A stretch of 32,000 nucleotides of DNA, from the NCBI GenBank assembly GCA_003554845.1, contig PWHK01000019.1, forward strand, positions 2,189-34,188, read 5' to 3'. This DNA comes from Candidatus Aenigmatarchaeota archaeon (GTDB lineage: Archaea; Aenigmatarchaeota; Aenigmatarchaeia; PWEA01). Below the pieces are notes generated by a model. The model saw nothing but the letters and a program-made list of their open reading frames with translations, was not told where the DNA came from and searched no databases. This document shows, piece by piece, positions 12,103-32,000 of this stretch (its first letter is position 1; each line of letters begins with the position of its first letter). The position numbers and the translations under genes are program-made.

Positions 12103-12507
12103 CTACTTTAACTTCAGATCTTCTACATCGCTGTTCCTTCTTAGAAGTGTTCTGACCTTTTCTATATTACTTCCGTTTGCTCCTATTACCCTTCCTCTGT
12201 CCTTTTCATCTACTTCTACGAAGGCAGTATCGCCGCTTATATCTACATTGTTGGACTCCAGTACCATATTCTTTACAAGCTTTTTGTCGTTTTCCTCGTA
12301 TTCAAATACCTTTATCCTCTTTCCGAGCATCTTTCCTATCTTCTTTATGTTTTTACCGTTTTTACCTATGGCCAGTCCTGCCTTTCCTTGTTCGACAAGG
12401 AAGTATGCAGAATCATCGTCTTCAATGAAGTCCTTTACTTCAACGTTGGTTTCTTCTTCGAAAAGACTTATAGACTGTATTGCTTCTTTGTCGAACTTCT
12501 TTTTCAT
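12103..12507 (-). CDS. nusA: Archaeal NusA-like protein (two KH domains)
   Basis: GKAGLAIGKNGKNIKKIGKMLGKRIKVFEY and RGRVIGANGSNIEKV are GxxG KH motifs. The gene sits directly downstream of rpoA''. Stop codon is TAG. Confidence 0.88.
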   Translation of the reverse strand: MKKKFDKEAIQSISLFEEETNVEVKDFIEDDDSAYFLVEQGKAGLAIGKNGKNIKKIGKMLGKRIKVFEYEENDKKLVKNMVLESNNVDISGDTAFVEVDEKDRGRVIGANGSNIEKVRTLLRRNSDVEDLKLK

Positions 12508-12511
12508 TTTT

Positions 12512-13663: not shown

Positions 13664-13667
13664 TGTA

Positions 13668-16142: not shown

Positions 16143-17942
16143 TTAGACCGAATCCTCTATGTTGAGTTTTGGATATATTGTCATTGATTTTAGTTCGTCA
16201 AGCAGCAACTTAAAGGCGTATCCCATTGGAACGTCCTCTATATGGTCACTGTCTTTGCACATTGGACATCTTGTTTCTCCCCTTGTTTCGTCTTCTACTG
16301 CAATGACACCGCATTTTTTGCACACAGGTAGTGTTACCTTATCCGAGGAGAACCTTTCCTTTAATGTCATCGATGCACCGTGTCCAATAAAACAGTCCTT
16401 TTCCATTTCACCGAGACGTAGACCACCTTCCTTTGCCCTTCCCTCGGTTGGTTGCTTTGTCAGTAGTGTTACAGGTCCCCTTGACCTTGCATGCAGCTTG
16501 TTTGAAACCATATGCTTAAGCTTTTCGTAGTATACTATACCTTGGAATATCTCCGCTTCCATTATTTCACCCGTCGTGCCGTTGTAAAGCACCTCTTTGC
16601 CGTCTGATCTGAAACCACAGTCTCTGAGCCTTTCCCTTATATCCTTTTCGTTTTCCGAAGAGAATGCTGTTGCATCGACTTTGCGGCCATCCATAGCACC
16701 TACTTTTCCTGATAGTACTTCCAGTATCTGACCAACCGTCTGTCTAGATGGTATTGCATGTGGATTTAATATTACATCGGGAGTTATTCCGTCCCTTGTG
16801 AAGGGCATGTCTTCTTCAGGTTCCAGAAGGCCTATTACACCTTTCTGGCCATGTCGTGTAGCGAACTTATCTCCCATTTCAGGTACCCTCTGTTCCCTCA
16901 CTGTAACCTTAACAAGCTTGTTTCCATTCTCCGTCTCCGAGAGCAGAACCTTGTCGGCAACCCCACCTTCACCGTGTCTTACAGTAACTGATGTTTCTCT
17001 TCTGTTTTGTATTCCTGTTACAAAATCACCTGTTCCCATGAAACGGAGTGGTGATGTTTTCCCTACAATTACATTTCCACTTTCTAAGCTTACTTCAGGT
17101 GGAACTATTCCGTCTTCTGATAGGTGCGAGTAGGCCTTTTCGGATCTATATCCCCTTACATCTTTGTCCGGTATGCTTATTTCATCTTCCTGTCCTCCTG
17201 AATATCTCTGTCTCTCGGCATCATATGTTCTAAAGAAGTAGCTTCTTGCAAATCCTCTTTCTACGCTGTTTTTGTTTACTATCAGTGCATCTTCTATATT
17301 AAATCCCTTGTATGATAGAAGTGCTACGACAACGTTCTGTCCTGCAGGGTGGTTTTTGAGTTCAACTGCCTCCTCTGTCTGTGTTGTTACAAGGGGAGTC
17401 TGTGGGTATGCAAGTATATTGCTCTTTGTATCTGCCCTCAGTGGGTAGTTTGCACTATAGAAACCAAGGGTCTGTCCTATCATCTTTGCTCCGTAGCTTA
17501 TTCTGTCACCTCTGTTGTATTCTGGAAATGGTACAAGAGAAGCGTTTATACCCAGTATGTTAGCCGGATGTATCTCGACATGTGTATGCTTTTCATTTAT
17601 CTCATCATCCTTTGATGCCACAAGGAGATCCTCTTCTTCTGATGCATCTATCCATTCGATTATACCCTGGTCTATTAGATCGCTCCAGTTCATCTCACCT
17701 TCCTCTACCTTTTCTATATGTTCCTCAGTCAGTAGAGATTCGCCGTCCTCGACCCTTACAAGTGGTCTTCTCACCCTTCCGGAGTCTGTGTTTACTCTTA
17801 TGTTTTCCTCATCCTGGTTGTATCTCATATTGAAGTCGTGTGGAATCTCACCGTTTCTTCTCTTTTCCTTTAGTTCTCTTACAAGCTCCTTTGGTTCTTC
17901 TGTTATGCCTGCAAACTTTCCGTTTAAAAATACATCTGTCAT
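16143..17942 (-). CDS. rpoB1: DNA-directed RNA polymerase subunit B' (C-terminal half of a split RpoB)
   Basis: GDKFATRHGQKGVIG, and the C-terminal Zn ribbon CKKCG...CPMC. 599 aa. Confidence 0.95.
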   Translation of the reverse strand: MTDVFLNGKFAGITEEPKELVRELKEKRRNGEIPHDFNMRYNQDEENIRVNTDSGRVRRPLVRVEDGESLLTEEHIEKVEEGEMNWSDLIDQGIIEWIDASEEEDLLVASKDDEINEKHTHVEIHPANILGINASLVPFPEYNRGDRISYGAKMIGQTLGFYSANYPLRADTKSNILAYPQTPLVTTQTEEAVELKNHPAGQNVVVALLSYKGFNIEDALIVNKNSVERGFARSYFFRTYDAERQRYSGGQEDEISIPDKDVRGYRSEKAYSHLSEDGIVPPEVSLESGNVIVGKTSPLRFMGTGDFVTGIQNRRETSVTVRHGEGGVADKVLLSETENGNKLVKVTVREQRVPEMGDKFATRHGQKGVIGLLEPEEDMPFTRDGITPDVILNPHAIPSRQTVGQILEVLSGKVGAMDGRKVDATAFSSENEKDIRERLRDCGFRSDGKEVLYNGTTGEIMEAEIFQGIVYYEKLKHMVSNKLHARSRGPVTLLTKQPTEGRAKEGGLRLGEMEKDCFIGHGASMTLKERFSSDKVTLPVCKKCGVIAVEDETRGETRCPMCKDSDHIEDVPMGYAFKLLLDELKSMTIYPKLNIEDSV

Positions 17943-17946
17943 TTTA

Positions 17947-19437
17947 TCATTTCTTTATTTCGGTTTTCAGTTCACCTAGTATTTCTTCTGCCTCTGATTC
18001 AGGTAACCCTGTTGATATGGATGCCATCAGTGCCAGGTATTTTCTAAGACCGATTGTTGGTCCTTCCGGAGTCTGTGTTGCTCCAAGCCTTCCCCAGTGG
18101 GTTGCGTGCAACTGTCTGGCATCGAAATGTTCTTGCTGGGTCGACAGCGGAGATGTTACATTTCTCAGGTGCGAAAGTGTTTTTATATAGTTGGTTCTCT
18201 CGAGCCTCTGTGATACACCGCTTCTTCCCCCGACCCACAGACCGGTTGCAAATGCCGACTGTATTTGTCCTGTCAACATATCAGACTCTACAACTGTATT
18301 TATAGTTGGTACCTTACCCCTTCTTGCTATCTTCTTGTAGTTGTATTTTATTCTTGAAATGAGGCCAACTCTACCCAGAAGCTTGCTTCTTATCAGTATC
18401 TCCAGGAGCTCCGAACTTGTTCTTATTCTCTTGTTTCTGTAGTGGTCTATGTCGTCTGGTTCAAGATCACCGTTTGAAACGTATAGTATCTTTTTAGCAC
18501 ATCTTCCGAGATACATTGCTTTGTCCATTCTACCCTCTTCGTCCTGGCTTATATGTGGAAGAAGGTATTTGTCTATTACTTCACCTGCCCTCCTTTTTCT
18601 GTATTCCTCGTCGGAGACGTTCATACCCTTTCCTATGTAGCTAAGGGCTTCTTCTGTATCGGATACATCTGTCTCGTATAGGTTGGCGTATATCTCTTCC
18701 TGGTAGTCCTCTTCGCTTGTTATGGACTGAACTATTTCTTTGTCGGTCTCCAGTCCAAGTGCCCTCATAACAACAACTAGAGGTACCTTGCGTGCATTTG
18801 CAAAGGATATTGTTAAAAGTCCATCCCTTTTCTTGTTTATTGTGTGTCTTTGTCCCCATCCACTTCTCTCCGAGTTTATTCTTGCAGCATATTCTATCTT
18901 TTTCTTGCTTCTTTTTTCAACTATTACACGGTTTGGTGCTACTTCTTCTAATAGCATAAGAACTCTTTCGGTACCGTTTACTATGAAATAACCCCCCAGA
19001 TCTTCTGGGTCTTCTCCTGCCTCTATCAACTCCTCGTCACCCATGTCTGAAAGTGGGCATTTATCGGATCTTACCATTATAGGAAGTTCTCCGATCTTTA
19101 CTTCCTTTTGTTCATGTACTTCGCCATCTGCCTTTGTAGTCATCTGTAGAAATACAGGTGCTGAGTATGTTATGTCTCTGAGCCTTGCCTCCTTTGGAAG
19201 TATCTGCCTTAGGCTTCCGTCTGCTTCTTTGACTGAAGGTTCACCTACCCTTACTTCTCCAAGTTCTATTGTAAAGTCACCGAGTCTCTCGGATTCAGGT
19301 TCTATATCTCCTATCCCGTCGATTATTTCTTGTAGTCTTTCATTTACAAATCTATTATAGGCCTCTATCTGATATCTTGCAAAACCCTTTTCGGATTTGA
19401 AGGCCTTGAGTAAGGACTGAAGTTTGGTTTTTTTCAT
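17947..19437 (-). CDS. rpoB2: DNA-directed RNA polymerase subunit B'' (N-terminal half of a split RpoB)
   Basis: 496 aa. It ends in HATHWGRLGATQTPEGPTIGLRKYLAL and lies 4 nt upstream of B'. Confidence 0.95.
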   Translation of the reverse strand: MKKTKLQSLLKAFKSEKGFARYQIEAYNRFVNERLQEIIDGIGDIEPESERLGDFTIELGEVRVGEPSVKEADGSLRQILPKEARLRDITYSAPVFLQMTTKADGEVHEQKEVKIGELPIMVRSDKCPLSDMGDEELIEAGEDPEDLGGYFIVNGTERVLMLLEEVAPNRVIVEKRSKKKIEYAARINSERSGWGQRHTINKKRDGLLTISFANARKVPLVVVMRALGLETDKEIVQSITSEEDYQEEIYANLYETDVSDTEEALSYIGKGMNVSDEEYRKRRAGEVIDKYLLPHISQDEEGRMDKAMYLGRCAKKILYVSNGDLEPDDIDHYRNKRIRTSSELLEILIRSKLLGRVGLISRIKYNYKKIARRGKVPTINTVVESDMLTGQIQSAFATGLWVGGRSGVSQRLERTNYIKTLSHLRNVTSPLSTQQEHFDARQLHATHWGRLGATQTPEGPTIGLRKYLALMASISTGLPESEAEEILGELKTEIKK

Positions 19438-19449
19438 AATGATCCGTAC

Positions 19450-19695
19450 CTATTTTTCTTCTACTACAAGTCTGTAGTAAATAGCCTCGCCTGCGGTGGG
19501 ACTTTTTCTTTTTATCTTTAAAACATCTCCAACTGAAGCTTCTATCTCCTTGACAACTGGATCTTTGTCGTATATCTTCGGGAGTTGTTTTTGGTTTATA
19601 CCGAACTTTTCCAAAAGCTCTTCCTTTTCATCGGAGGATAGAACCTCGTGTTCTGGCACTCTGATATGGTCCGTTACTTTGTATTTTTTGCCCAT
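19450..19695 (-). CDS. rpoH: DNA-directed RNA polymerase subunit H (Rpb5-like)
   Basis: HIRVPEHEVLSSDEKEELLEKFGINQKQLPKIYDKDPVVKEI...GDVLKIKRKSPTAGEAIYYRLVV. Stop codon is TAG. Confidence 0.92.
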   Translation of the reverse strand: MGKKYKVTDHIRVPEHEVLSSDEKEELLEKFGINQKQLPKIYDKDPVVKEIEASVGDVLKIKRKSPTAGEAIYYRLVVEEK

Positions 19696-19822
19696 ATTTT
19701 TCCATACCCTTTAAACAAAATATCCTATCTTTGGAGAAAGCTCATGAACTGGTAAATTCCATTATAGGTTAACGTTTATAAAGGTTTTGGTGTTTTTTCA
19801 TAGACTATCGACGAATTTTTAA

Positions 19823-19966
19823 TGGGCCCGACGGGATTTGAACCCGCGACTACTGGGTTTCTTTCTTCATCCAGGACCTTGGTATCAGTTTTGTTTGTAA
19901 GGTCCATGTCGGAGCTTTTAACATAAGTTAAAAGCCCAGTGCTCTGCCAGACTGAGCTACAGGCCC
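19823..19966 (-). tRNA. tRNA-Lys (anticodon UUU) with a 70-nt intron at 37/38 (19859..19928)
   Basis: GGGCCTG-TA-GCTCAGTCTGGCAGAGC-A-CTGGG-CTTTTA^[70 nt]^A-CCCAG-TAGTC-GCGGG-TTCAAAT-CCCGT-CGGGCCC-A. The BHB core pairs CTTT (32-35) with AAAG at intron -6..-3, with 3-nt bulges on both sides. The intron contains an inner hairpin, GGACCTT...AAGGTCC. Confidence 0.9.
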
Positions 19967-20172
19967 CTGTTGTTCCAAGACTCTATGAACTGTCCTATAG
20001 ATCTGTCGTGGGTCTTTTCACCTTCTTCGGGAAAAAGACAACCAGGTACTTCGTTGTTCTTTTTGTGGTATTTTATACATTCACAACAGAGTCCCTTTCT
20101 TGGGCAGCCGGGATACGTGCATGTGCAGTTCTCTCTGTTTGTATCCTTGTTTTGACAGACTGTTTGGGACAT
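19957..20172 (-). CDS. Small Cys-rich protein (resembles the family I recall as DUF6485)
   Basis: NCTCTYPGCPRKGLCCECIKYHKKNNEVPGCLFP...THDRSIGQFIESW, 71 aa. A GAGGT Shine-Dalgarno (SD) sequence lies 9 nt upstream of the ATG. The 3' end overlaps tRNA-Lys(UUU) by 10 nt. Confidence 0.7.
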   Translation of the reverse strand: MSQTVCQNKDTNRENCTCTYPGCPRKGLCCECIKYHKKNNEVPGCLFPEEGEKTHDRSIGQFIESWNNRGL

Positions 20173-20190
20173 CTTGACTACCTCTTAAAA

Positions 20191-20266
20191 TGGCGCCGCG
20201 ACCGGGATTTGAACCCGGGTCAGAGCCTCGACAGGGCTCTATGCTGAGCCACTACACCATCGCGGC
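20191..20266 (-). tRNA. tRNA-Asp (anticodon GUC), CCA encoded
   Basis: GCCGCGA-TG-GTGTAGTGGCTCAGCAT-A-GAGCC-CTGTCGA-GGCTC-TGAC-CCGGG-TTCAAAT-CCCGG-TCGCGGC-G-CCA. Confidence 0.93.
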
Positions 20267-20290
20267 CAACGACATATCATTTTGTTGGAA

Positions 20291-20300
20291 ACCTTTTAAG
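20291..20300 (-). promoter_or_regulatory. Candidate TATA box (CTTAAAAGGT on minus strand) for tRNA-Asp
   Basis: The TTAAAAGGTTT core is shared with the 5S promoter. It is centred about 30 nt upstream of tRNA position 1 (20266). Confidence 0.5.
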
Positions 20301-20338
20301 TATTTATGCTTACAAGCCACGGTAGGAAGGTAAATAAT

Positions 20339-20454
20339 GGCTGGCAGCGTCCTGGTGTTCACCTCTTTTCGAGGTTAAAGACCAATTCGCTGGAGGACTT
20401 TTCTTCCGTGTTCGGATGGGTACGGGAGTTGCCCCTCCGCTTTGGCCGCCAGCC
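20339..20454 (-). rRNA. rrf: 5S rRNA (stand-alone, not linked to 16S/23S in this window)
   Basis: The reverse complement contains the universal CCCGTACCCATCCGAACACGGAAG segment. The ends pair to form helix I: GGCTGGCGGC with GCTGCCAGCC. About 116 nt. Confidence 0.9.
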
Positions 20455-20465
20455 TTACTATTCGT

Positions 20466-20489
20466 TGAATCCAAACCTTTTAAATCTTT
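20466..20489 (-). promoter_or_regulatory. 5S rRNA promoter module (minus strand AAAGATTTAAAAGGTTTGGATTCA), copy A of a repeated 24-nt element
   Basis: The TATA core is centred 27 nt upstream of the 5S 5' end. The module ends exactly 12 nt before the 5S first nucleotide. A near-identical copy lies at 26016..26040. Confidence 0.65.
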
Positions 20490-20513
20490 TCTTTACTTTG
20501 TGTATTTTGAGAA

Positions 20514-21920
20514 CTATATTCCTAATCTTACCTTGGATGATGACCTTTCGAAGGTTCTTCCGTCTACTGAACCCCTTGCTCTGGCCTCTGGGAATATAAG
20601 TTCGTCTATTGATTCCACAAGAACCTTTGCCTTGTAGTGTACTACCCTGTCATCCCCTGGTCCCATATCACCTAGCTTCCATCTGAGTACTGTGTCGTCG
20701 CCCTGTCTTATTATATTTGGCTTTACAGTGTCAAACTTGTCCAGTACCCTTGTTACGGAAGGAACAGAGTCCTCTATTATTACATTTTTTGCTTTTCCGA
20801 AGAGCCTGTTCTTTACGTGTAGGGATATGGTCAGTATTCTCTTGTCCTCGGATACCTCACTTTTAACTACTTCTTTTTTGATAACAGGCGCCTTCATATA
20901 GAGATATGCTCTGAATGTTATCAGGGCTATAAGTACTATGAGGATATAAAGAGGCCAGTAGTTTATCTCGTAGCTCATCTGTGTGGACTCACCCGGCTCA
21001 AGTTCTATGTTCCATATGTATGTTCTTGAAAGTCCATCCCTTCTGATTTCGACGTCTTCTGCAGTTACGAGCAAAGATATGGGAAATCCTATCCTTTCCT
21101 CTATGTTCTTTTCCTCTACGATGTTTCCTTTATTTTGTGCGTGTATTGTGTTGGTTCTTATAATATATCTTCCGTCGGAGGTCACCTCTGTCTGATAGTC
21201 TGCTATTTCAATTACTCCAAACGGTTCCTCACCCGACTTTATTGTGTGTCCTGCTCCCCGGACTTCGTAATTTATTTTGTAGTCCCCCGGAGTCTGGTAT
21301 TCCTGTAGATCAACAGACGCGCTGACCGTTTTACTTTTTCCTGTTTCCAGAATGAACTCTTCCAAGTGGGATCCCACCATCTCGCCTTCACCTGTAACCT
21401 CTATGTAGAATTCGCCGTCTTCGAAGTCCTTTGTTCCGTCGTTTTCGACTACAACAGAGGCCCTTACTTCTTCGTTTGGACCGTAGTCGACCTTTTCAAG
21501 TATAAAGTCTCTGAATACCATCGAGTAGTCCCTCAGAACTATAAAACAGAGATCAGATGACTCTGAAACCTCTCTGTAGTTTTCGGAGATTACAGAAAAT
21601 TGTGTTTTGTACTCGCCGAGTTCTATGTTTCTCGGTGCGTTTATGCTTATTTCTATGGTTCTTGTCTCGTCTGAATTTATCCTTAGTAGATTGTTAGAAA
21701 GAGAGAACCATGTAGAAAATTCCCGGGGAGTCCTGACACGGAATATGTCCCTTGAATCGTAGGTGTTGGTTATGTTTACCTCGTATGTGTGGGGAAGAAT
21801 AACACAAGATCCTTCTTCATCGTAGTCTATCTCTATATGTGCTATAGAAACAGGAGTTATACCTACGAATACAACAAGGACCATTAAAACAAGAAAAACC
21901 TTCTTCAAAACATTCACCAA
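20514..21920 (-). CDS. Membrane-anchored surface protein with CARDB/DUF11-like beta-sandwich domains
   Basis: The N-terminus has a signal-like helix (KKVFLVLMVLVVFVGITPVSIA). It also has a CARDB-type motif (ASVVVENDGTKDFEDGEFYIEV), one TM helix (WPLYILIVLIALITFRAYLY) and a C-terminal DUF11-like segment (VIIEDSVPS...VLRWKLGDMGPGDDRVVHYKAK). The start is TTG 21920 or GTG 21917. Stop codon is TAG. Confidence 0.7.
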   Translation of the reverse strand: MVNVLKKVFLVLMVLVVFVGITPVSIAHIEIDYDEEGSCVILPHTYEVNITNTYDSRDIFRVRTPREFSTWFSLSNNLLRINSDETRTIEISINAPRNIELGEYKTQFSVISENYREVSESSDLCFIVLRDYSMVFRDFILEKVDYGPNEEVRASVVVENDGTKDFEDGEFYIEVTGEGEMVGSHLEEFILETGKSKTVSASVDLQEYQTPGDYKINYEVRGAGHTIKSGEEPFGVIEIADYQTEVTSDGRYIIRTNTIHAQNKGNIVEEKNIEERIGFPISLLVTAEDVEIRRDGLSRTYIWNIELEPGESTQMSYEINYWPLYILIVLIALITFRAYLYMKAPVIKKEVVKSEVSEDKRILTISLHVKNRLFGKAKNVIIEDSVPSVTRVLDKFDTVKPNIIRQGDDTVLRWKLGDMGPGDDRVVHYKAKVLVESIDELIFPEARARGSVDGRTFERSSSKVRLGI

Positions 21921-21957
21921 TAGTAGTTTTGTGTTTGTTATAAATAAAGATTAGGCG

Positions 21958-22149
21958 TTACTTCTTGAATTTGGATACCTTTCCAGTGAGATCCGTGTGG
22001 GTTAAAAACAGACTTCTGCAGCAGTATCTGTCGAGTCCGAGTTCATCCAGTACCTCCTTTGGATCTTCATCCCTTCTCCTTTCCTTGAACTCCTCCCATA
22101 GGTGGCCCACGGGTTTTCCACAGCTCATACATCTTACCGGTATTATCAT
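21958..22149 (-). CDS. rpoN: DNA-directed RNA polymerase subunit N (Rpb10-like)
   Basis: MIIPVRCMSCGKPVGHLWEEF...LDRYCCRSLFLTHTDL. ATG 22149 is preceded by AGGTGAAAAC, with the S9 TGA stop inside the SD. The 13-aa extension in the ORF track is unlikely. Confidence 0.9.
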   Translation of the reverse strand: MIIPVRCMSCGKPVGHLWEEFKERRRDEDPKEVLDELGLDRYCCRSLFLTHTDLTGKVSKFKK

Positions 22150-22153
22150 GTTT

Positions 22154-22555
22154 TCACCTCTTGCTCCTCTGCTTGTGCTTTCTTGCACCCTTTGAGGATA
22201 CAGATGGTTTATGTGGTTCTGTTGTTCTTGAATCCCTTACAAGCATATACCTATCATAACTTTCAAACTTCTTCTCAAGTTCTTCATCCCCTGTAAACTT
22301 AACAAGTCCCTTGGCGACTGCCTGTCTTACTGCGTCGGCCTGTCCCATCTTACCGCCGCCTGATACATTGATATCCATATCAACCTTTCCTGTTATATCC
22401 CCTGCCAGTTCGAGTGGTTCCCTTATCATAAGCCTTATCATCTCGTCGCTGAAGCTCTCTAGAGGACGTGAGTTTATTCTTATATTTCCACTTCCTTCCT
22501 CTACTCTTGCCCGTGCCTTTGCTTCCTTTCTCTTTCCGGTTGTATTTACAGTCAT
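22154..22555 (-). CDS. rps9: 30S ribosomal protein S9 (uS9)
   Basis: GKRKEAKARARVEEGSGNIRINSRPLE...GGGKMGQADAVRQAVAKGL...KGARKHKQRSKR. It overlaps L13 as ATGA. Confidence 0.93.
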   Translation of the reverse strand: MTVNTTGKRKEAKARARVEEGSGNIRINSRPLESFSDEMIRLMIREPLELAGDITGKVDMDINVSGGGKMGQADAVRQAVAKGLVKFTGDEELEKKFESYDRYMLVRDSRTTEPHKPSVSSKGARKHKQRSKR

Positions 22556-22953
22556 GGTTTTCCACCTATCTTTTCTGATAATTCCTCGAGAGTTATATAG
22601 TTTGTCTTTATGTCATCGGTTTTCTTTGAAACAACTTCTCCTTCCCTTTCCTCGTAGTTTCCTCTTACAACACTGAGTCTTTTAAGGGCTTCCCTTCCTC
22701 TGCTCTTTTTTGTGGGAAGCATTCCCTTGATTGAATTTCTCAATATCCTCTCCGGTTTTAGCTTGGAGAAGGGTCCGTGTTTGGCATCGCCTATACTTTT
22801 CTTTTTTAGATATTTCTCTACTGTGTTTTCGGGTCTACCCGTTATTACTGCCCTTTCGGAGTTGATTATCTCTATCTCTTCTCCGTCCAGTAGAAGAGAT
22901 GCGACCTCCGACGAGAGACGGCCCATTACCTGGTTCTTTGCATCTACAATCAT
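22552..22953 (-). CDS. rpl13: 50S ribosomal protein L13 (uL13)
   Basis: MIVDAKNQVMGRLSSEVASLLLDGEEIEIINSERAVITG, with the conserved L18e-L13-S9-RpoN gene order. Confidence 0.93.
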   Translation of the reverse strand: MIVDAKNQVMGRLSSEVASLLLDGEEIEIINSERAVITGRPENTVEKYLKKKSIGDAKHGPFSKLKPERILRNSIKGMLPTKKSRGREALKRLSVVRGNYEEREGEVVSKKTDDIKTNYITLEELSEKIGGKP

Positions 22954-22954
22954 T

Positions 22955-23308
22955 TTAACCCTCTAGTATCCTTACGTTTTTTCCCTTTGGATTTTTGTCG
23001 AGGAGATCAAGTATGCTTATGGTTTCTCCGGCTTCGTTTATCTTTTGTTTTGCCTTTCCCGAGAAGCCAAATGCAGCGACAGTTATCTTCTTGTCGAGTG
23101 TACCGTATCCTGTTACCTTTCCTGGAACCAGAACAGTTTCGCCGTCCTCCGAATGCCTGTTTATCTTTGCAATGTTTACGGCTTTTTTGTTTCTTCGGCT
23201 CTTTTTCAATCTTTGTGCAACGTCTCCCCAGATCCCTATACCTTTCTTTCTGCACTTCTCTTCTGCTTTGCTTATTGTCTTTTTCAAGACTGGATTTGTT
23301 TTCTCCAT
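22955..23308 (-). CDS. rpl18e: 50S ribosomal protein L18e (eL18)
   Basis: ATG 23308 gives MEKTNPVLKKTISKAEEK...VLVPGKVTGYGTLDKKITVAAFGFSGKAKQKI. The longer 152-aa ORF would read through tRNA-Leu. Confidence 0.88.
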   Translation of the reverse strand: MEKTNPVLKKTISKAEEKCRKKGIGIWGDVAQRLKKSRRNKKAVNIAKINRHSEDGETVLVPGKVTGYGTLDKKITVAAFGFSGKAKQKINEAGETISILDLLDKNPKGKNVRILEG

Positions 23309-23332
23309 CTTGTCACCTTTTACTGGGCTTGA

Positions 23333-23483
23333 TGCGGGGGGCCGGATTCGAACCGACGAAGGCACTAAGCCACAGGATTTCTTATCATTGTGCCCGTATA
23401 TATCGGGACTCAAAACTTAAGCTTGAACTTAAGTCCTGCACCTTTAGTCGTATGTTTACCTTTGACCGCTTGGTTACCCCCGC
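23333..23483 (-). tRNA. tRNA-Leu (anticodon UAA) with two BHB introns: D-loop (23444..23461, 18 nt) and 37/38 (23379..23427, 49 nt)
   Basis: Exons: GCGGGGG-TA-ACCAAGCGGTCAA^AGGT-G-CAGGA-CTTAAG^A-TCCTG-TGGCTTAGTGCCTTC-GTCGG-TTCGAAT-CCGGC-CCCCCGC-A. 151 minus 67 leaves an 84-nt class II tRNA with A73. D-loop BHB: GGTC pairs with GACT, flanked by AAA bulges. Anticodon BHB: CTTA pairs with TAAG. Confidence 0.85.
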
Positions 23484-24265
23484 TAGCTTAATTTCTCAAC
23501 TACCTTGTCTGCCTTTTCTTCGAGTACTTCAGCGGCCTTTGATATTATATATTCTGGGTCCAGTGAACATATGGATTCTATCTTGAATATAAACTTTTCC
23601 TCATCGCCTGTGACTACTACGCCCGAATCAACCTCTTCTACACATTCCTTACATAGAGTACATCTTTCTTCGTTCTCTATGTTGAGTTTGTCTCCATCCA
23701 GTTCGAATACGTTCCTTGGACATATTTCTTGACAACTTTTCTTTTCTTCAACAGTGAGTTCATCGTTGTCTACGTCTATTATAGGATAGTACTGGTAAGA
23801 TGATACCGATGCCTGGTGTTTTGAGTGGTCCTTTCCTATGGATAGACAGGCAGTTGCCTCCAGGTCAACCTCCTGGTTTTCGTCCATCTCTGTTATTGGT
23901 ATTCTATCGTAAAGTACTTCCACGTCTCCAGACTTGCAGTTGAGTTCTCCTGAATATAATATACCGGGTCCTTCTCCCTTGAGGGTGAACTTAACTTCAC
24001 AGTTGGAGCAACCTTCTTCGCATTCACAGTCCTCGTGCATATTGAACTTATCCGGATCGAATACGAGGGGTACCTGTCCCAGTCTCTGTGCTATTATCTC
24101 GTCAAACACAGGAGAGCTGTTCTCTATTATACCTACATTTTCTATTGCAAGAACCGGTATGTAGTTCATTGTAGTTCTTCTGAGTGCATTCATCATTGCA
24201 GGGTTTGTGTCCTCTGCTATGAACTTCAGTTTTTTACCTTTCCCGTCGATCTTTTCTAGTTTCAT
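23483..24265 (-). CDS. rpoD: DNA-directed RNA polymerase subunit D (Rpb3-like) with a ferredoxin-like Cys cluster insert
   Basis: NPAMMNALRRTTMNYIPVLAIENV, and Cys clusters CECEEGCSNC and CQEICPRNV...CTLCKECVE. ATG 24265 follows the S11 stop directly. The ORF track start at 24313 overlaps S11. Confidence 0.9.
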   Translation of the reverse strand: MKLEKIDGKGKKLKFIAEDTNPAMMNALRRTTMNYIPVLAIENVGIIENSSPVFDEIIAQRLGQVPLVFDPDKFNMHEDCECEEGCSNCEVKFTLKGEGPGILYSGELNCKSGDVEVLYDRIPITEMDENQEVDLEATACLSIGKDHSKHQASVSSYQYYPIIDVDNDELTVEEKKSCQEICPRNVFELDGDKLNIENEERCTLCKECVEEVDSGVVVTGDEEKFIFKIESICSLDPEYIISKAAEVLEEKADKVVEKLS

Positions 24266-24266
24266 T

Positions 24267-24653
24267 TTATACCCTCTTTCCTCTTTTACCTCCTGGTCTT
24301 CTGGTCGAGTCATGTGGTATTGGTGTTATATCCTCTATCTTACCTATTCTCATTCCTGCCCTTGCAATTGCCCTGATAGCAGGCTGCGCCCCTGAGCCCG
24401 GGCTTTTTGAACCGTGTCCTCCGGGAGCCCTTACCTTTATATCGACCTTTTCTATACCTTTTTCCTTTGCATCCTTCGCTGCTTTTTTAGCTGCCTGCAT
24501 CGCTGCAAAGGGAGCGCCTTTGTTTCTGTCCTGTTCTGTTACCATTCCACCGGTGTACCTACTTATGGATTCTGCTCCACTCATGTCGGTTATATGTATT
24601 ATTGTATTGTTTTCAGACGATCTTATATGTGCAATGCCTTTTTTGTTTGCCAT
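24267..24653 (-). CDS. rps11: 30S ribosomal protein S11 (uS11)
   Basis: [26 protein letters not shown]...[47 protein letters not shown] 24653 lies within the GGTGAATAAAATG junction cassette. Confidence 0.93.
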
Positions 24654-24654
24654 T

Positions 24655-25134
24655 TTATTCACCTATGAGTAGTTTTTCGTCTACAGATACCTTGTCTTCG
24701 AGTTTCTTTGGTACAAGAAACGAAGGTGATTTCATAACCCTGTCTCCTACCTTTACATGTCCATGTATAACAAGTTGTCTTGCCTGGTTTACAGTTCCAA
24801 CGCCATCTATCTTAGATACGATGGTCTGTAGCCTCTTGTCGAGTACATCTCTCAGGTCGATTCTGAGTATCTGACTGATGTCGTCTTCGTCTCCAATGAG
24901 ACCCATCTTTCTACATTTTCCAAGCAGCTCTTCCTTGTTCTTTTCGGTTGTTTCTGCTGCGGCCTCCCTTGCCCTTCTCCTTAGTTCTCTGAGGAAGCTC
25001 TCCATCTTAAGTATTTCTTCCTTTCTCTTGAGGCCGTAGTTCTGCATAATAGACCTGTCGTTTTCTATTCTTCTCTCGTCCCACGGTATAAGTGGTTTCT
25101 CGTACTTCTTTCTCTGCTTTTTTGGATCTCCCAT
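24655..25134 (-). CDS. rps4: 30S ribosomal protein S4 (uS4)
   Basis: [23 protein letters not shown]...RRLQTIVSK-type S4 domain. ATG 25134 lies within the GGTGAATAAAATG junction cassette. Confidence 0.93.
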
Positions 25135-25135
25135 T

Positions 25136-25603
25136 TTATTCACCCTTTCCTGACTTTTCCTTCTTTATCTTTGATGTCGAAACTCCAACCGAAGAGTCTC
25201 CTCTGAAGCTTGATTTGGTCTTCTGTCCCCTTACAGGAAGTCCGCGTCTATGTCGCAGTCCTCTGTAGTTACCGAGTTTCTTCATTGCTTCTATATCCTG
25301 CCTTATCTGCATCTCAAGGTTCGTCGATGTAAGCATTTTGTTATCTCCTGTTTCGGGATCCTTTCTCCTGTTGAGTAGATATGTAGGGATTTCGCCCTTT
25401 TCTATTACTTCCTCCAGAGTATTCTTTTCTTCTTTACTTATATCCCCTGCGAGCTTATCCGAATCTATTCCGGCCTTTTTCAGTATGGGTTTACTTGTCG
25501 AGAAGCTTATACCCTTTATACGTCTGATGCCTTCCCCTATTCTCGAATCACCGGGAATATCGGTCCCGAAAATTCTCAGTATGTTTTTTCTTCCTTCGGA
25601 CAT
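25136..25603 (-). CDS. rps13: 30S ribosomal protein S13 (uS13)
   Basis: ATG 25603 gives MSEGRKNILRIFGTDIPGDSRIGEGIRRIKGISFSTSK...GLRHRRGLPVRGQKTKS. The longer 185-aa ORF would read into tRNA-Ser(UGA). Confidence 0.92.
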   Translation of the reverse strand: MSEGRKNILRIFGTDIPGDSRIGEGIRRIKGISFSTSKPILKKAGIDSDKLAGDISKEEKNTLEEVIEKGEIPTYLLNRRKDPETGDNKMLTSTNLEMQIRQDIEAMKKLGNYRGLRHRRGLPVRGQKTKSSFRGDSSVGVSTSKIKKEKSGKGE

Positions 25604-25625
25604 ATTTTCACTTTTTCTTTTTGGT

Positions 25626-25819
25626 TGGCGCCGGGGGTGGGACTTCCAGTGGAACTGAAAGTATTGAACTTCGGTCCCATCTTTTGAACCCACGCGGGCT
25701 TCCGCAGATATCAGGTCTTACGCGACCCACCGGATCTCTCGAAAACCTGTCTTATCATCCTCTCGTCAACAGATCCGGTCTCAAGTCCGGCGCGTTGAAC
25801 CTGGCTTCGCTACCCCGGC
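25626..25819 (-). tRNA. tRNA-Ser (anticodon UGA) with three BHB introns (25736..25779, 25700..25719, 25643..25682); CCA encoded
   Basis: Exons: GCCGGGG-TA-GCGAAGCCAGGTTCAACGC-G-CCGGA-CTTGAG^A-TCCGG-TGGGTCGCGT^GCCCGC-GTGGG-TTCAAA^T-CCCAC-CCCCGGC-G-CCA. Introns are 44, 20 and 40 nt. 194 minus 104 leaves 90 nt, the same mature length and the same three intron positions as tRNA-Ser(CGA). Confidence 0.85.
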
Positions 25820-25827
25820 CAACTATA

Positions 25828-26004
25828 CTAAAACTTTTCCGCATCTTCCAAAAGCATGTTTGGTATGCCTTCGTCGACGGAAAACTTCAGTCGGCATTCG
25901 TGGCAAACTATCTTGTTTTCTCTTTTATTAAGCTTTACGTTTCCCTTGCATTTTGGACATGCTATTACTTCCATAATCCGATCCATGCTTCCCGGGGCAG
26001 ACAT
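25828..26004 (-). CDS. Trm112-like small zinc-ribbon protein (UPF0434/Trm112 family)
   Basis: CPKCKGNVKLNKRENKIVCHECRLKFSVDEGIPNMLLEDAE. ATG 26004 sits exactly where the upstream promoter module predicts the transcription start, so the mRNA would be leaderless. ATGs at 25986 and 25974 are alternatives. Confidence 0.75.
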   Translation of the reverse strand: MSAPGSMDRIMEVIACPKCKGNVKLNKRENKIVCHECRLKFSVDEGIPNMLLEDAEKF

Positions 26005-26015
26005 CACAACTCTTA

Positions 26016-26040
26016 TGAATCCAAACCTTTTTAAATCTTT
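26016..26040 (-). promoter_or_regulatory. Promoter module copy B (minus strand AAAGATTTAAAAAGGTTTGGATTCA)
   Basis: It matches 20466..20489 at 24 of 25 positions (one extra T). It ends 12 nt before ATG 26004, the same spacing as copy A to the 5S 5' end. Confidence 0.6.
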
Positions 26041-26050
26041 CCAGTGGATA

Positions 26051-27010
26051 TCAGTTCCATCCCTTGGGATATGTTCCACGGGACATGACTACGTTTATAA
26101 GCGAAGCAGCCTTACCATCCTCCCTTTTGTATATATCTTCCGAGTCCATGTCGGTCTTTCCTATTGCCACAAGCTCTCCTTTACCTGAAAGAATGGTCAG
26201 TTTGTCGCCCTTCTCTATATTTTTTTCCACCGCCGATACGCCACCTACGCCTAGATCTGCCCCGTTGCATATAGACTCTATGGCTGTGTCCTTTGCTACG
26301 ATGCACTTCGATACATCTGCTGCCACTTCTACAGGTAGTATATCCTTCTTTATGTCCTCGTTTTTTTCTTCTCTGAAAAATACATAATCGTCTTTGATCG
26401 TCTGAAGCTTTACAGCATTGTCTTCGGTGAAGGGTCCAACTGCTGTTCTTCTGAGCTCTTTCATATGGCAGCCACAGCCCAGTTCCTTTCCCAGATCATG
26501 GGCGAGCTTCCTTATGTAGGTTCCTGCCTCACAGTTTATTCTTAGAAGCATATCCTTTCCGTTCTTTTCAATGAGTTTGAGTTCGTTTATAGTCCTCGTT
26601 CTCTGTCTTCTCTTTACAGCAGACTTCTTTGGTGGTGTTTGTTTTATAGATCCTCTGAACTTTTCAAGGGCCCTTTGTACATCTTCCTCCGGTATATTCT
26701 CATGCAGAACAAATACAGATATATACTCCTTGTCGAGTTTGTTGAGCACAGGCATTGCCTTTGTTGATTTTTCAAGTGCAACGACAAGAACTCCTGTGAC
26801 CTTTGGATCCAGTGTGCCGGTGTGACCAGCCTTTTTTATATTCAGTATGTCTTTAAGCCATCCCGTGACCTGGTGTGAAGTCGGTCCCTTTGGTTTGTCT
26901 AGGACCACTATACCCCTTTTTATGAGCTCTTCTGTGGATCTAGAGCCGGGGTACTTTCCAAATCTTATGTCGGATATTACTCCTTCTCTAAAATTAAACT
27001 CTCGTTTCAT
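26051..27010 (-). CDS. cbf5: tRNA/rRNA pseudouridine synthase Cbf5 (TruB family, H/ACA RNP catalytic subunit) with C-terminal PUA domain
   Basis: The TruB catalytic motif GHTGTLDPKVTGVLVVAL is present, with a PUA-like C-terminus (AIESICNGADLGVGGV...LVAIGK). ATG 27010 overlaps the upstream gene's stop as ATGA. Confidence 0.92.
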   Translation of the reverse strand: MKREFNFREGVISDIRFGKYPGSRSTEELIKRGIVVLDKPKGPTSHQVTGWLKDILNIKKAGHTGTLDPKVTGVLVVALEKSTKAMPVLNKLDKEYISVFVLHENIPEEDVQRALEKFRGSIKQTPPKKSAVKRRQRTRTINELKLIEKNGKDMLLRINCEAGTYIRKLAHDLGKELGCGCHMKELRRTAVGPFTEDNAVKLQTIKDDYVFFREEKNEDIKKDILPVEVAADVSKCIVAKDTAIESICNGADLGVGGVSAVEKNIEKGDKLTILSGKGELVAIGKTDMDSEDIYKREDGKAASLINVVMSRGTYPKGWN

Positions 27011-27639
27011 GGACTTGCTCCCATCAACTTTCTGAATACCTGCGATACACCGAGAGATATCAGTATGTACCAACCCAGCCATCCAAGTGCGTTTCCCCAG
27101 AAGGGCAGCGAAACAGGAAGGCGTGCTGCAACCCGCAGTAGTTCCAGTTCTCCTGTGTCTTCTCTGAGTTCATCCACCTTGAGTTCGTAGCCATCTATGG
27201 TTAACACATCGTTTTCTCTGTATGTGTTTCCATCCATGGTGATCTCAAGCGGGTCGGTGTTTTCTAGGGATATGGTTTTCTCTATTCCACCGTATTCAAC
27301 TGTTCCTGTATTGTTTATTTCCACTGTAGCTGCAGGATATAGACCCGGCAGTACAAACCAGAATATGGGTATGATCAACACAAATGTAGCTATCATAGGT
27401 TTGAACTGCATCTTCATCTGTCTTTGGCTCTGTTTCATTACATCCTGTGTGTATTCCATTGCCTTTTCTTCGTTGCCGTCTTCGCGTGCCTCCTTGGATT
27501 TCTTTTTGAGTTCATTCATTTTTTCTTTTATACTACCCAGTTCATCGTGGTCCATCAGTATCTTGTAAAATAGGGATATTACAAAACTTGTGGCGGAGGC
27601 TATGATAAACACGCCGATTAGTGGATTTTCAAAAACCAT
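27007..27639 (-). CDS. DUF106 / archaeal YidC-Oxa1-like membrane protein with an enlarged acidic loop
   Basis: The layout is TM1 (IGVFIIASATSFVISLFYKIL), a charged coiled-coil (KEKMNELKKKSKEAREDGNEEKAMEYTQDVMKQSQRQMK), TM2, then a loop of about 70 aa, then LGWLGWYILISLGVSQVF. It occupies the usual position after secY. A GGGTGA SD precedes the ATG. Confidence 0.75.
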   Translation of the reverse strand: MVFENPLIGVFIIASATSFVISLFYKILMDHDELGSIKEKMNELKKKSKEAREDGNEEKAMEYTQDVMKQSQRQMKMQFKPMIATFVLIIPIFWFVLPGLYPAATVEINNTGTVEYGGIEKTISLENTDPLEITMDGNTYRENDVLTIDGYELKVDELREDTGELELLRVAARLPVSLPFWGNALGWLGWYILISLGVSQVFRKLMGASP

Positions 27640-27678
27640 ATTTTCACCCTATTAGTCTTTCTTTTGTCTAATAAAAAC

Positions 27679-29085
27679 TTACTTGTTCATGAACTGGCGG
27701 AGGGCCGGATGCATGTCTTCCATGTGTTGCTGTGCGAGTTCTTCGTAGAGCTTGTATATTATCATAGTTGCCAGTAGTATTCCTATACCCCCTCCGACTG
27801 CACCGAAAAAGTCTGCAAATACAGACAGTAGACCTATAAACAGTCCCGATAGAACTGCAAGGTAAGGTATGTATCTGTCGAGTATTCTTTTTATTATCCT
27901 CTTGTCCCTTCTGTATCCCGGAACAGACATTCCCATGTTGTGTATTCTCTCTGCAACAGTCTTTGAATCCTGTCCGGATGTTTTTGCCCAGAAGACAGAA
28001 AATATTATTGTAAGTGCACATACAGTGGCTGCATATGGTATCCATGCCGTAGTTATCTCAGGAAGAGGAGCTTCTGTTATACGGCTTACGACTATTTCGG
28101 TTAGAAGACCATCTCTTGGAGTTGCTGCCTGTGGGCTGTATATCCAGTAGAGTAGTCCGGATTCTGGTATGCCGCCTTCTCCAAACCTACCAAGTATAGG
28201 CATTCCTCTGTCTGCAAGCATCTGTCCCATTATATTGAGGTTTGCCAGCATTGCATGGGTGAAAATTATAGGTATTACACTTGTGTATAGAAGGCTCAAT
28301 GGATATCTCTGTCCAAAGCCCTTTACCTGGCCAAAGGCAAGAGGTATTTCTACCTTCATTGCGTTGAGATATATAACAAGGAAGAAGACGAGAACTGTGA
28401 AAATTATGGGTATAAGTGACGCAGCAGTCTCTACAAGGTTTCCTGCTGCAAGTGTTTGGAAGGCCTGTGGTATATAACCAACAGCCCCCTCTGCGGCAGA
28501 TGGAAGTGTTCCTTCTGCAGTTAGAGGATTGAGAAGCCTCTGTATAATCTGCATCGATACCCCGGATGCAATGAAGAGCGACACACCCGAGCCAAATCCC
28601 CATTTGGATATTACTTCGTCCATGAGCACTATTAGTATACCACCGACGGCTACCTGTGCTATAACAAATCCTGTCATTCCTGCCTGTGCGGGTATTGCTC
28701 CAAAGGAAACAAATGCCACGGCCTGTACTACACAGAATGCAAGTGCCAGAAGTTTCTGTGTCCCCATGAATATTTTTTTACCTTTGGCTGTGCTCGTATC
28801 CCACTGGAGTATATCACTTCCAGTAAGAAGCTGGAGTATGATAGAAGCATTTACAATAGGGACGATACCAAGTGTTATCAGTGATCCAAACTAGGATGCA
28901 ACTATTGTCTGTAGGAACTCAAATCTTTCGAGTCCAACCGGAGAAACTCCCCATACGGTTATGTTTCCCATTATAAAGTATACTATAACTATTATTCCGG
29001 TCCATTTGAGTTTGCTATTGAAGTTTAATCTTTTCTTTGGTCCTTCTACACCTGGAACTATAGAAAGTAGGTCACGATAATTCAA
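27679..29085 (-). CDS. secY: Preprotein translocase subunit SecY, a single frame interrupted by one in-frame TAG (28891..28893)
   Basis: ORFs 28891..29085 and 27679..28767 are in the same frame. The 41 codons between them read FGSLITLGIVPIVNASIILQLLTGSDILQWDTSTAKGKKIF, the conserved SecY TM2 segment. The total is 467 sense codons. The apparent start is TTG 29085, inside the L15 3' end. Confidence 0.85.
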
Positions 29086-29488
29086 TGGCGCTTCCCCCTG
29101 TTTCCTCCAGTTTTTCTCTGGCTTTTTCTGAGAAGTCCTTGGCCTTTACTTCGAGGGTTTTTGTAACATTTCCAGAACCAAGAAGCTTGTCGTATCCGGC
29201 TTTTTGAAGATCCACAACGAACCCATCTCCGTTCTTTTCTGCTGCTCCGGACTCTATAAACTCATCCAGCCTCTCTTCGAGGTTCTTTATATTTATTTCA
29301 TCTGCTGTCTTTATTACAGCCTGTGGCCTTTTGAAGCCCTTTCTTCGTTTTTTCTCCCTTGAGTACTTTATCTTTCGATGCTTCCTGCCACCTCTTCCTC
29401 TGCCTCCTCGTGATCCTGCTCCCCTTCTTTTTTTCTTGGAACCACCACCATGGGTTCCCGAGCCTCTGTATTTTTTCTTTTTTGACAT
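29072..29488 (-). CDS. rpl15: 50S ribosomal protein L15 (uL15)
   Basis: MSKKKKYRGSGTHGGGSKKKRRGAGSRGGRGRGG, a Gly/Arg-rich N-terminus, in the L30-L15-SecY gene order. Confidence 0.92.
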   Translation of the reverse strand: MSKKKKYRGSGTHGGGSKKKRRGAGSRGGRGRGGRKHRKIKYSREKKRRKGFKRPQAVIKTADEINIKNLEERLDEFIESGAAEKNGDGFVVDLQKAGYDKLLGSGNVTKTLEVKAKDFSEKAREKLEETGGSAIELS

Positions 29489-29490
29489 AG

Positions 29491-29895
29491 TTACATCATC
29501 TTCTCAAAAAGTTTTTCTACTCCGTCTTCTCTGTTACCTGCCTCTCCTTTGGGGTACATATTCTTTGTACTTCCTTTGAAACCTCCCGATGGAGGCGAAA
29601 GAGGAAAACTTCTTCTCACATTCATCTTTGATAGACTCTTTCCTTCTTCGAGTCCTTCGGCGATTTCCTCTGGATTTTCTACTCCGTTTTTATCAAGAAT
29701 TTTAATTGCAGTATCTTTGTTTATTTTTCCCCATGTGACAAACCTCTCGACCTTTTTGAGCATTCCTCTGTAGTCTTCCGTCTCGGGTAGAATAGTGCAG
29801 TTGAACTTGTTTTTGAGGTTCAGCATACCAAGTGTATCTTCTAACTTCTGTCTGACCCCGACCTTTCCCCTTATTCTTATAACGCCGTACATCAT
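29491..29895 (-). CDS. rpl30: 50S ribosomal protein L30 (uL30)
   Basis: YGVIRIRGKVGVRQKLEDTLGMLNLKNKFNCTILPETEDYRGMLKKVERFVTWG. Confidence 0.9.
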   Translation of the reverse strand: MMYGVIRIRGKVGVRQKLEDTLGMLNLKNKFNCTILPETEDYRGMLKKVERFVTWGKINKDTAIKILDKNGVENPEEIAEGLEEGKSLSKMNVRRSFPLSPPSGGFKGSTKNMYPKGEAGNREDGVEKLFEKMM

Positions 29896-30599
29896 ACTTC
29901 ACCTATTACAGTACCCGACTTTTCCTTGAATTCTTCGTCTATTTTTAGTTGGTTTAGGTTTCTCAGTGCGTTGTATACAGCTTTTATGAGATTGGTACGT
30001 GTCCTTGTTTTACCGAAGGTCTTGGCCCAACAGTCTTCTATTCCTGCAAGCTCAAGGAACTTCTTTACCTCGTCTGATACAACAAGGCCTACACCTCTTG
30101 GAGCAGGCTTGAGAACTGCAGTTACACTTCCTGATTTGCCCTTTATTTCTGTTGGTATCGAGTGATGTGAAGCACACTCACATTCCCAAGATCCGCATCC
30201 TCTTCTTACAGGGATTATATTTAATTTTGAGTTCTTTATGGATTTCTGTATTGCTGTTCTAAAGGCACCGGATCCTGTTGCCTGTCCCTCTCCTATGCCT
30301 ACGTATCCGTTTCTGTTACCTATTACGGCAAATGCGGTCATCTTGTATTTTCTGCCACTCTTATGCATCTTTGCGGTTCTCTTGGCAGGAGTTCTTCTTA
30401 TACCTCCACCCTTTCCAGGTGATCCACCTACGAGTATTAGTTCGTGGTCCAGGTTGGGAAGAAGCAGATCTATTATCTCCGGTTCCATTATCTTTCTTCC
30501 CTGTTCAAATACCTGATCTATCGATGTTATTTTTCCATCGACTACTTCCTTTCCAAGCTCTGTCTGTGGAGTCCAGTCCTTTGTTTGTTCTCCTGTCAT
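29892..30599 (-). CDS. rps5: 30S ribosomal protein S5 (uS5)
   Basis: WTPQTELGKEVVDGKI...FAVIGNRNGYVGIGEGQA...GTGLVVSDEV-type S5 domains. ATG 30599 lies within the GGTGAATAAAATG junction cassette. The ORF track start at 30614 is inside L18. Confidence 0.92.
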   Translation of the reverse strand: MTGEQTKDWTPQTELGKEVVDGKITSIDQVFEQGRKIMEPEIIDLLLPNLDHELILVGGSPGKGGGIRRTPAKRTAKMHKSGRKYKMTAFAVIGNRNGYVGIGEGQATGSGAFRTAIQKSIKNSKLNIIPVRRGCGSWECECASHHSIPTEIKGKSGSVTAVLKPAPRGVGLVVSDEVKKFLELAGIEDCWAKTFGKTRTRTNLIKAVYNALRNLNQLKIDEEFKEKSGTVIGEV

Positions 30600-30600
30600 T

Positions 30601-31170
30601 TTATTCACCTTCATCTATGTTTTCTAATACTTTATCAAAGTTTTCTGATAATTTTTCAGGATCCAAGCCGTTGTCTATCATATTTGAAAAATGTTCTTTC
30701 TTTTGATCAGGATCCATCTGTGATGCGTATTCCTCTATATGAAGTCCCTTTATCCTGTCTTCTGATGGAATTACTTCTTCTCCGGCTGGTACATCTACAC
30801 CTGAATCGATCAAACCCTTAACTGCCGCATAAATTCTGCTTTCCTTTGTATTTTTATGGAGTCCCAGGTCCAGTATGCATTCTTCTACTTCCTCTGCCCT
30901 TTTTCCGAGTAGGTATCCTGTGAGGTACGCCGACGGTATATTTCCAGTGTGTCCTTTCCATCCATAGCCTTTTAGTTCCTTTGCTTCTGCGTGTGATAAA
31001 ACAGTATCTCCGTCTTTGTTCCATTGTATTATCTGGGTCTTTGTGTTACCAAGGCTCTTTCTTACAACAAGCCTTGGTTTACCACTCTTAAGAAGACCAA
31101 GTCTCTGTTTGTAGTCTGTTTTCTTCTCTCTACGTCTCCTTTTTGGAACCCTTTCACTCAATTTTCTCAC
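30601..31170 (-). CDS. rpl18: 50S ribosomal protein L18 (uL18)
   Basis: KRRRREKKTDYKQRLGLLKSGKPRLVVRKSLGNTKTQII. The start is GTG 31170 or TTG 31161, and it overlaps the L19e 3' end. Confidence 0.9.
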   Translation of the reverse strand: MRKLSERVPKRRRREKKTDYKQRLGLLKSGKPRLVVRKSLGNTKTQIIQWNKDGDTVLSHAEAKELKGYGWKGHTGNIPSAYLTGYLLGKRAEEVEECILDLGLHKNTKESRIYAAVKGLIDSGVDVPAGEEVIPSEDRIKGLHIEEYASQMDPDQKKEHFSNMIDNGLDPEKLSENFDKVLENIDEGE

Positions 31171-31606
31171 CTTCTAACATACCTTCTTTTTTGGCATATA
31201 CTTTTAACTGTTTCTTTGATTTGAACCTGCCACCCTTTGCCTTTCTATAGAGCTCTCTGTAGGTCTCTCTGTCTATATCTCCATCTTCACGTAGGCTTTT
31301 TAGTAGCTTTCTCTGTGCCCTTATCCTGGACATCCATCTGTCTTTATCATTTTCTCTTGTTCCCTTTCTTCTTCCATGTCCTCTTCTTCTTCCCTTCTTC
31401 TTCTGTATCATTCTCTTTCTCGTTCTTCCGCGGGACTGCTGGTTCATTTTTTTCTTTTTTATGGCACCCTGCTGGACGAGCCTTCTTATATCTGCCTTTG
31501 TTATTGCGTCGTTTACATCCTCCATTCTTTCTGGATCTATCCAGATCTTGTTTCTTCCGCAGTCTAAAACATCTGCTGCCATCTTTCTTTGTGTGGATAG
31601 ATTCAA
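31154..31606 (-). CDS. rpl19e: 50S ribosomal protein L19e (eL19)
   Basis: NLSTQRKMAADVLDCGRNKIWIDPERMEDVNDAITKADIRRLVQQGAI. The start is TTG 31606, with a GAGGTG SD 7 nt upstream. Confidence 0.92.
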   Translation of the reverse strand: MNLSTQRKMAADVLDCGRNKIWIDPERMEDVNDAITKADIRRLVQQGAIKKKKMNQQSRGRTRKRMIQKKKGRRRGHGRRKGTRENDKDRWMSRIRAQRKLLKSLREDGDIDRETYRELYRKAKGGRFKSKKQLKVYAKKEGMLEGEKIE

Positions 31607-31616
31607 ACTTTACACC

Positions 31617-31778
31617 TCATGTCCAATGTATGTTTGTTTCGTTTTTTGGTGCATGTATTACACCGAACTGGTTGAACTTTGCTCCGCATTTCGGGCAGTC
31701 CGAAAGCTTTTCTATTCCGGAGTCCTGTCCCAGAGTACCGCAGAGCGGACATTTCGTTTCTTTAAATCTCAAAAACAT
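31617..31778 (-). CDS. Small (53 aa) zinc-ribbon protein inserted between L32e and L19e (below the ORF-track length cutoff)
   Basis: MFLRFKETKCPLCGTLGQDSGIEKLSDCPKCGAKFNQFGVIHAPKNETNIHWT. It has a CPxCG...CPxCG motif. A GAGGT SD lies 8 nt upstream of the ATG and overlaps the L32e TGA. Its own TGA is embedded in the GAGGTG SD of L19e. Confidence 0.55.
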   Translation of the reverse strand: MFLRFKETKCPLCGTLGQDSGIEKLSDCPKCGAKFNQFGVIHAPKNETNIHWT

Positions 31779-31787
31779 TCTATTACC

Positions 31788-32000
31788 TCAGTTTAAAACA
31801 TTTATTTCCATTTCTTCGGCTTTTTCAATGATCTTCTTTCTTTTTCTTTTTCCGATATTCGAGCTTATTCTTGCTGCTTCCCTTTCTTTGTCTATCTTCT
31901 GGAGATCGTCGATGTTTCTAACTAAAACTTCATAGTAGCCCGATGGGTGCATTCCCTTGTTTTGGCTACCGTATCCGGGTGAAGGTTTTATTCCATGTCC
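31788..32000 (-). CDS. rpl32e: 50S ribosomal protein L32e (eL32), 5' part outside the window
   Basis: My translation of the minus strand gives GHGIKPSPGYGSQNKGMHPSGYYEVLVRNIDDLQKIDKEREAARISSNIGKRKRKKIIEKAEEMEINVLN, followed by a stop. This matches the L32e C-terminal region, and the gene sits in the expected position upstream of L19e. Confidence 0.85.
   Translation of the reverse strand, partial: GHGIKPSPGYGSQNKGMHPSGYYEVLVRNIDDLQKIDKEREAARISSNIGKRKRKKIIEKAEEMEINVLN

Follow-up and report, generated by a model that had tools for sequence, protein, structure and literature searches.

The secY gene of a haloalkaliphilic member of the Aenigmatarchaeota (DPANN, family PWEA01) from Kulunda soda-lake sediments is interrupted by a single in-frame TAG. 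Is this codon read through, tolerated, or foreign to the working gene? In the window, by which we mean the whole 32-kb stretch of DNA that was analysed, secY occupies 27679..29085 on the minus strand. It forms a 468-codon frame with a TTG start and a TAA end (469 codons in the translation), and its sole interruption is the TAG at codon 65 (28891..28893, minus). The translation, Pfam profiles and a structural match agree with the claim of an earlier note that this frame encodes SecY from end to end, apart from the one stop. In the intact allele, Plug_translocon (PF10559) covers residues 34-67 (E = 9.9e-07) and the SecY core (PF00344) residues 68-447 (E = 1.4e-62), and of the solved structures, M. 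jannaschii SecY 1RHZ matches best (E = 1.5e-96, residues 6-468). The neighbouring uL15 gene (Pfam Ribosomal_L27A; 29072..29488, minus) overlaps the start of secY by 14 nt, and the gene order around secY is identical in loci L001, L002, L083 and L091. L30-L15-SecY is the normal archaeal order, which marks this as the primary secY locus of the organism. By full-length profile, structure and synteny, the window gene is a member of the SecY/Sec61-alpha translocon subunits.

Codon 65 is flanked by the residues ...QTIVAS-X-FGSLITLGIVPIVNASIILQLLTGSDILQWDTSTAK and pairs in the alignment with Arg66 of 1RHZ. The TAG had been described as lying just before the TM2/plug segment. It does lie directly ahead of TM2b, but not before the plug: the C-terminal end of the plug helix includes it, at position 33 of the 35-position Pfam plug model. 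The 64 codons upstream (28894..29085, minus) encode TM1 and most of the plug helix, with a Plug_translocon match at residues 34-64. The next ATG stands at 28767, as reported before, and corresponds to codon 107, which is 42 codons past the TAG and not 41. It opens a 362-codon ORF (27679..28767, minus) without TM1, plug or TM2b, in which the Pfam SecY profile match begins only at position 44 of 306. P0125, a cluster member of 362 aa sourced from NCBI, has the same sequence as the product of this ORF and is apparently what was called publicly as the window's secY. Annotators should regard the public 362-aa 'SecY' of the window's record as a truncated call, the full protein having 468 aa.

Four more public assemblies of this organism were retrieved, 99.98% identical to the window and without indels. 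The DNA aligns to them gap-free, which bears out the earlier statement that there is no frameshift at the TAG. ENA ERZ27265998 contig k141_752079 covers window positions 6143..32000 with five differences and no gaps; JGI 3300000557 covers 17679..32000 and 1..4904, with two and zero differences, respectively; NCBI GCA_022257675.1 (JAKOPF010000009.1) covers 1..13492 with three differences; and ENA ERZ27266011 covers 27087..32000, with short contigs at 15135..19806 and 2093..3565. Three of the four include secY, and all three, ERZ27266011 among them, have GAG (Glu) at codon 65. The difference is a single base at window position 28893, where the plus strand reads A in the window and C elsewhere, a G>T change on the coding strand. 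Two 468-aa SecY proteins, P0001 from the homology search and P0123 from JGI, likewise equal the window frame except for Glu at codon 65.

Over the 14,322 bp that include secY, k141_752079 has two mismatches to the window, at 28893 and 27703; the JGI secY contig (L083) also has two over this length, counted without individual location. At overlaps, the ENA ERZ27265998, JGI and NCBI assemblies agree on the allele wherever the window differs, the JGI mismatches in secY again being known as a count. In total, five single-base differences and zero indels are private to the window in 32 kb. The second one in secY (27703, minus) is synonymous, codon 461 being GCC in the window and GCA (Ala) elsewhere; relatives have GCA, GCG, GCT and GCC at this codon, so that the ancestral state is not indicated. 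The remaining three lie at 8229 (CTP synthase codon 262, Thr in the window and Ala elsewhere) and, in a 118-aa ORF, at 11769 (codon 58, Tyr in the window and Cys elsewhere) and 11851 (synonymous). The window's CTP synthase has no public record by exact look-up because of its private Thr262. Exact look-ups of the 362-aa and 64-aa truncated SecY products found no record in any other assembly. Scans of metagenome contigs with N at the variable base returned neither the TAG nor the GAG form, and the samples apparently lie outside that collection.

The nearest SecY proteins belong to MAGs labelled Candidatus Aenigmatarchaeota or Nanobdellati (DPANN), which come from hypersaline soda-lake sediments (T1Sed10, B1Sed10; JGI 3300000557 'SL_8KL_010_SED') and other brines. 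Among GTDB species representatives, the closest is PWEA01 (T1Sed10_94), which anchors an order and a family PWEA01, the latter proposed as 'Haloaenigmatarchaeaceae', halophiles with reduced genomes that are probably symbiotic (bioRxiv 10.1101/2024.03.10.584303; PMC6146748). The orthologue alignment that the earlier note had called for gives a consistent picture. Species with 82-94% SecY identity, congeners of the window organism, have GAG or GAC at codon 65. Across 78 related loci, this column holds S, K, E, Q, N, T, R or D (Lys in some DPANN) and TAG in none. Judged by these alignments, GAG is ancestral and the TAG arose from it by a coding-strand G>T change, private to one record.

We consider it highly probable (roughly 0.86) that the TAG is a non-programmed GAG>TAG substitution (Glu65>stop) confined to one assembly, and that the working secY reads GAG. 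Under the standard decoding of this genome, translation would end at codon 65, leaving a stub of 64 residues with TM1 and the plug. Re-initiation is ruled out as a remedy: no in-frame ATG, GTG or TTG occurs between the TAG and codon 107, which lies past TM2b, so re-initiation would remove TM2, as had been argued, and could not restore TM2b. The allele would then be null. SecY is established as essential. Because secY is both essential and single-copy, a null allele should be lethal and could hardly be a viable consensus genotype, which suggests that the base is an artefact of one assembly or a variant that is not fixed. The earlier note had listed a nonsense allele in a population assembly and a base-call error among its explanations; these are the two that the evidence supports, as a pair and undivided. 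The case resembles sporadic nonsense or consensus errors in MAGs. There, too, an essential single-copy gene departs at one base from assemblies that otherwise agree with it, and the decoding machinery shows no matching adaptation; no feature distinguishes the secY TAG from these errors. A lone in-frame stop in an essential MAG gene can mimic recoding, and near-identical assemblies expose it as a private base change. At least one tested feature contradicts each of recoding, pyrrolysine (Pyl) decoding, reassignment and pseudogene decay, and the TAG in secY would be best filed as something other than a decoding feature.

Between the two sources of such a base, an artefact of one assembly seems the most likely, arising perhaps through template damage, sequencing error or consensus error; failing that, a non-fixed variant may have been picked up in the consensus. 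Both private differences in secY are transversions, whereas the three outside secY are transitions, which favours an artefact. On the plus strand, the secY differences are C>A and T>G, the T>G being preceded by GGCGGAG. C>A, and T>G after such a motif, are typical of oxidative damage and of Illumina motif-associated errors. Two considerations count against an artefact. With its other private differences and no indels, the window resembles a genuine strain. Also, the longest contig in the cluster table of the truncated product is 56,657 bp; if this is the source contig, its coverage was decent, and random errors rarely win the consensus.

Alternatively, the TAG may be genuine, present at an appreciable frequency and tolerated by the cells. 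We regard this as improbable, although it fares best among the competing explanations. Tolerance might come from near-cognate leaky read-through at a variable and non-critical hinge position, or from a null copy beside intact ones in a polyploid cell. Nearly any residue should suit the position, given the variety of amino acids at this column in DPANN SecY. Moreover, the four other private differences (three of them transitions) and the zero indels make the window resemble a genuine strain, so that the TAG could be real DNA. Against this, the truncated products have no independent record in other assemblies, and nothing downstream of the TAG would promote read-through. The 103 nt from the TAG onward, whose folding had been proposed as a check, yield -21.9 kcal/mol, no better than shuffled sequences (mean -20.3 ± 3.0, z = -0.53). 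The basal level of read-through normally falls well short of what an essential translocon would require. A stronger version has only a slim chance of being correct: the TAG would be real and close to fixation in the sampled strain, with SecY production maintained by a Pyl-tRNA, another suppressor tRNA or unusually leaky termination. Fixation of the TAG in its population would be of interest because it would point to UAG suppression among DPANN archaea, and this version, if true, would provide the first sign of it in that group (Aenigmatarchaeota PWEA01).

How TAG is used in the rest of the window bears on any reading that involves decoding. TAG ends nine of the 44 genes (20%), which upholds the view that it is a genuine terminator here. 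RpoD and Trm112 extend the list given earlier; the other seven are the ORF ending at 1656, the methyltransferase at 3588, S8e, Sm, the NusA-like KH protein, RpoH and the 468-aa protein. Two of these stops form hard boundaries: the RpoD TAG shares its last base with the start of a tRNA-Leu gene, and the Trm112 TAG stands 8 nt ahead of a tRNA-Ser gene. In a six-frame scan of the approximately 44 genes, the TAG of secY was the only internal in-frame stop, in line with the earlier judgement that global reassignment is unlikely. The RpoH TAG (19450..19452, minus) is in frame with the downstream RpoB'' with no stop between them, and its read-through would fuse both proteins. This shared frame is an informal argument for efficient termination at TAG in this organism.

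It is very unlikely that a pyrrolysine tRNA or a different suppressor tRNA, with its gene in another part of the genome, decodes the UAG. Eight tRNA genes were found in the window (Val GAC, Gly GCC, Asp GUC, Lys CUU, Lys UUU, Ser CGA, Ser UGA and Leu UAA); the anticodon CUA is absent from this set, and an Rfam search across the window at a permissive E-value gave no further tRNA-like genes. With 20% of the stops, TAG shows no depletion. Pyl or suppressor decoding, as entertained in the earlier note, also conflicts with the Glu codon of the 99.98% identical genomes, and the UAG position is not conserved among orthologues. The Pyl genes mtmB, mtbB and mttB of Methanosarcinales, Methanomassiliicoccales and Methanonatronarchaeia do share with secY a single in-frame UAG in an intact archaeal ORF. 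In those genes, the UAG occupies a catalytic position and is conserved across species, and TAG is a rare terminator in their hosts. In contrast, the secY UAG is private and lies in a variable column, TAG is a common terminator, and no pylT, pylS or pylBCD was seen in the window. What speaks for pyrrolysine is that the TAG pairs with Arg66 of the M. jannaschii protein, a position taken by Lys in some DPANN, and that a distant link to Pyl genes exists through a single-cell genome.

This single-amplified genome (SAG), 'MSBL1 archaeon SCGC-AAA382A20', has been widely cited as an 'MSBL1' archaeon that encodes Pyl. Its contig LHYE01000036.1 (L086) is syntenic with the window and encodes a SecY with 71% identity. 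An incomplete or defective Pyl system has been reported for this SAG (PMC5424206), with PylRS and a pylT gene (A73) (PMC9630628, PMC9499178). MtmB, MtbB and MttB genes are reported for it as well, and its PylRS groups with Methanonatronarchaeia (PMC5424206, PMC9630628, PMC9499178). A DPANN lineage that uses Pyl seems less likely than a mixture of PWEA01-like DPANN DNA with DNA of a methyl-reducing methanogen, possibly a DPANN symbiont and its methanogen host. The data fit such a mixed SAG better than they fit Pyl use in a DPANN with a reduced genome of ~1.5 Mb (bioRxiv 10.1101/2024.03.10.584303). The SAG lead keeps the probability of Pyl decoding small but non-zero, and it does not outweigh the comparison of assemblies.

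The last two explanations can be dismissed briefly. A decaying second copy of secY, with the intact one elsewhere, has nothing but the stop codon itself in its favour and is scarcely credible, given that the gene lies in the canonical L30-L15-SecY-...-S13-S4-S11-RpoD cluster, that other assemblies have the intact allele at exactly the same syntenic locus, and that the lesions relative to them amount to one nonsense and one synonymous change with no indels or frameshifts. Conserved programmed read-through, or a lineage-wide reassignment of TAG, can be given almost no weight: the in-frame stop with coding that continues in the same frame does recall viral or cellular read-through, but the stop is missing from conspecific genomes and from all relatives, TAG ends nine genes, no stimulatory structure lies downstream, and the sequence 3' of codon 65 is the same in the GAG-bearing alleles, all of which also counts against the site-specific recoding raised in the earlier note.

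Several tRNA genes of the window contain introns. Three have multiple introns, tRNA-Ser(CGA) (5672..5876, minus), tRNA-Leu(UAA) (23333..23483, minus) and tRNA-Ser(UGA) (25626..25819, minus). Neither ARAGORN nor Rfam, at either threshold, detected them; they emerged from visual inspection of the intergenic gaps. All three have an intron that follows position 37, as well as further insertions, located in the D-arm region of tRNA-Leu and in the variable-arm region and T-loop of both tRNA-Ser. Once one or two introns are cut out by hand, ARAGORN calls all three with the anticodons given. The 'tRNA-Stop (tta)' that ARAGORN reported at 11963..12057, considered as a candidate suppressor, is really an intron-bearing tRNA-Lys(CUU) on the minus strand with an intron of ~21 nt. 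The tRNA-Lys(UUU) gene (19823..19966, minus), detected by Rfam only, has a 71-nt intron, and the bodies of the two tRNA-Lys are nearly identical.

Two public gene calls cross hidden tRNA genes. The S13 call (185 aa) is over-extended at its 5' end (25583..25693, minus) across tRNA-Ser(UGA), the S13 of relatives being 146-153 aa long, and the L18e call (152 aa) is likewise over-extended (23309..23413, minus) across tRNA-Leu(UAA), with 117 aa in relatives. Between tRNA-Asp and tRNA-Lys(UUU), a cysteine-rich 71-aa ORF (MSQTVCQNKDTNRENCTCTYPGCPRKGLCCECIKYH...; 19957..20172, minus) is represented in public calls by a 43-aa product only. It adjoins a stand-alone 5S rRNA gene (20339..20453).
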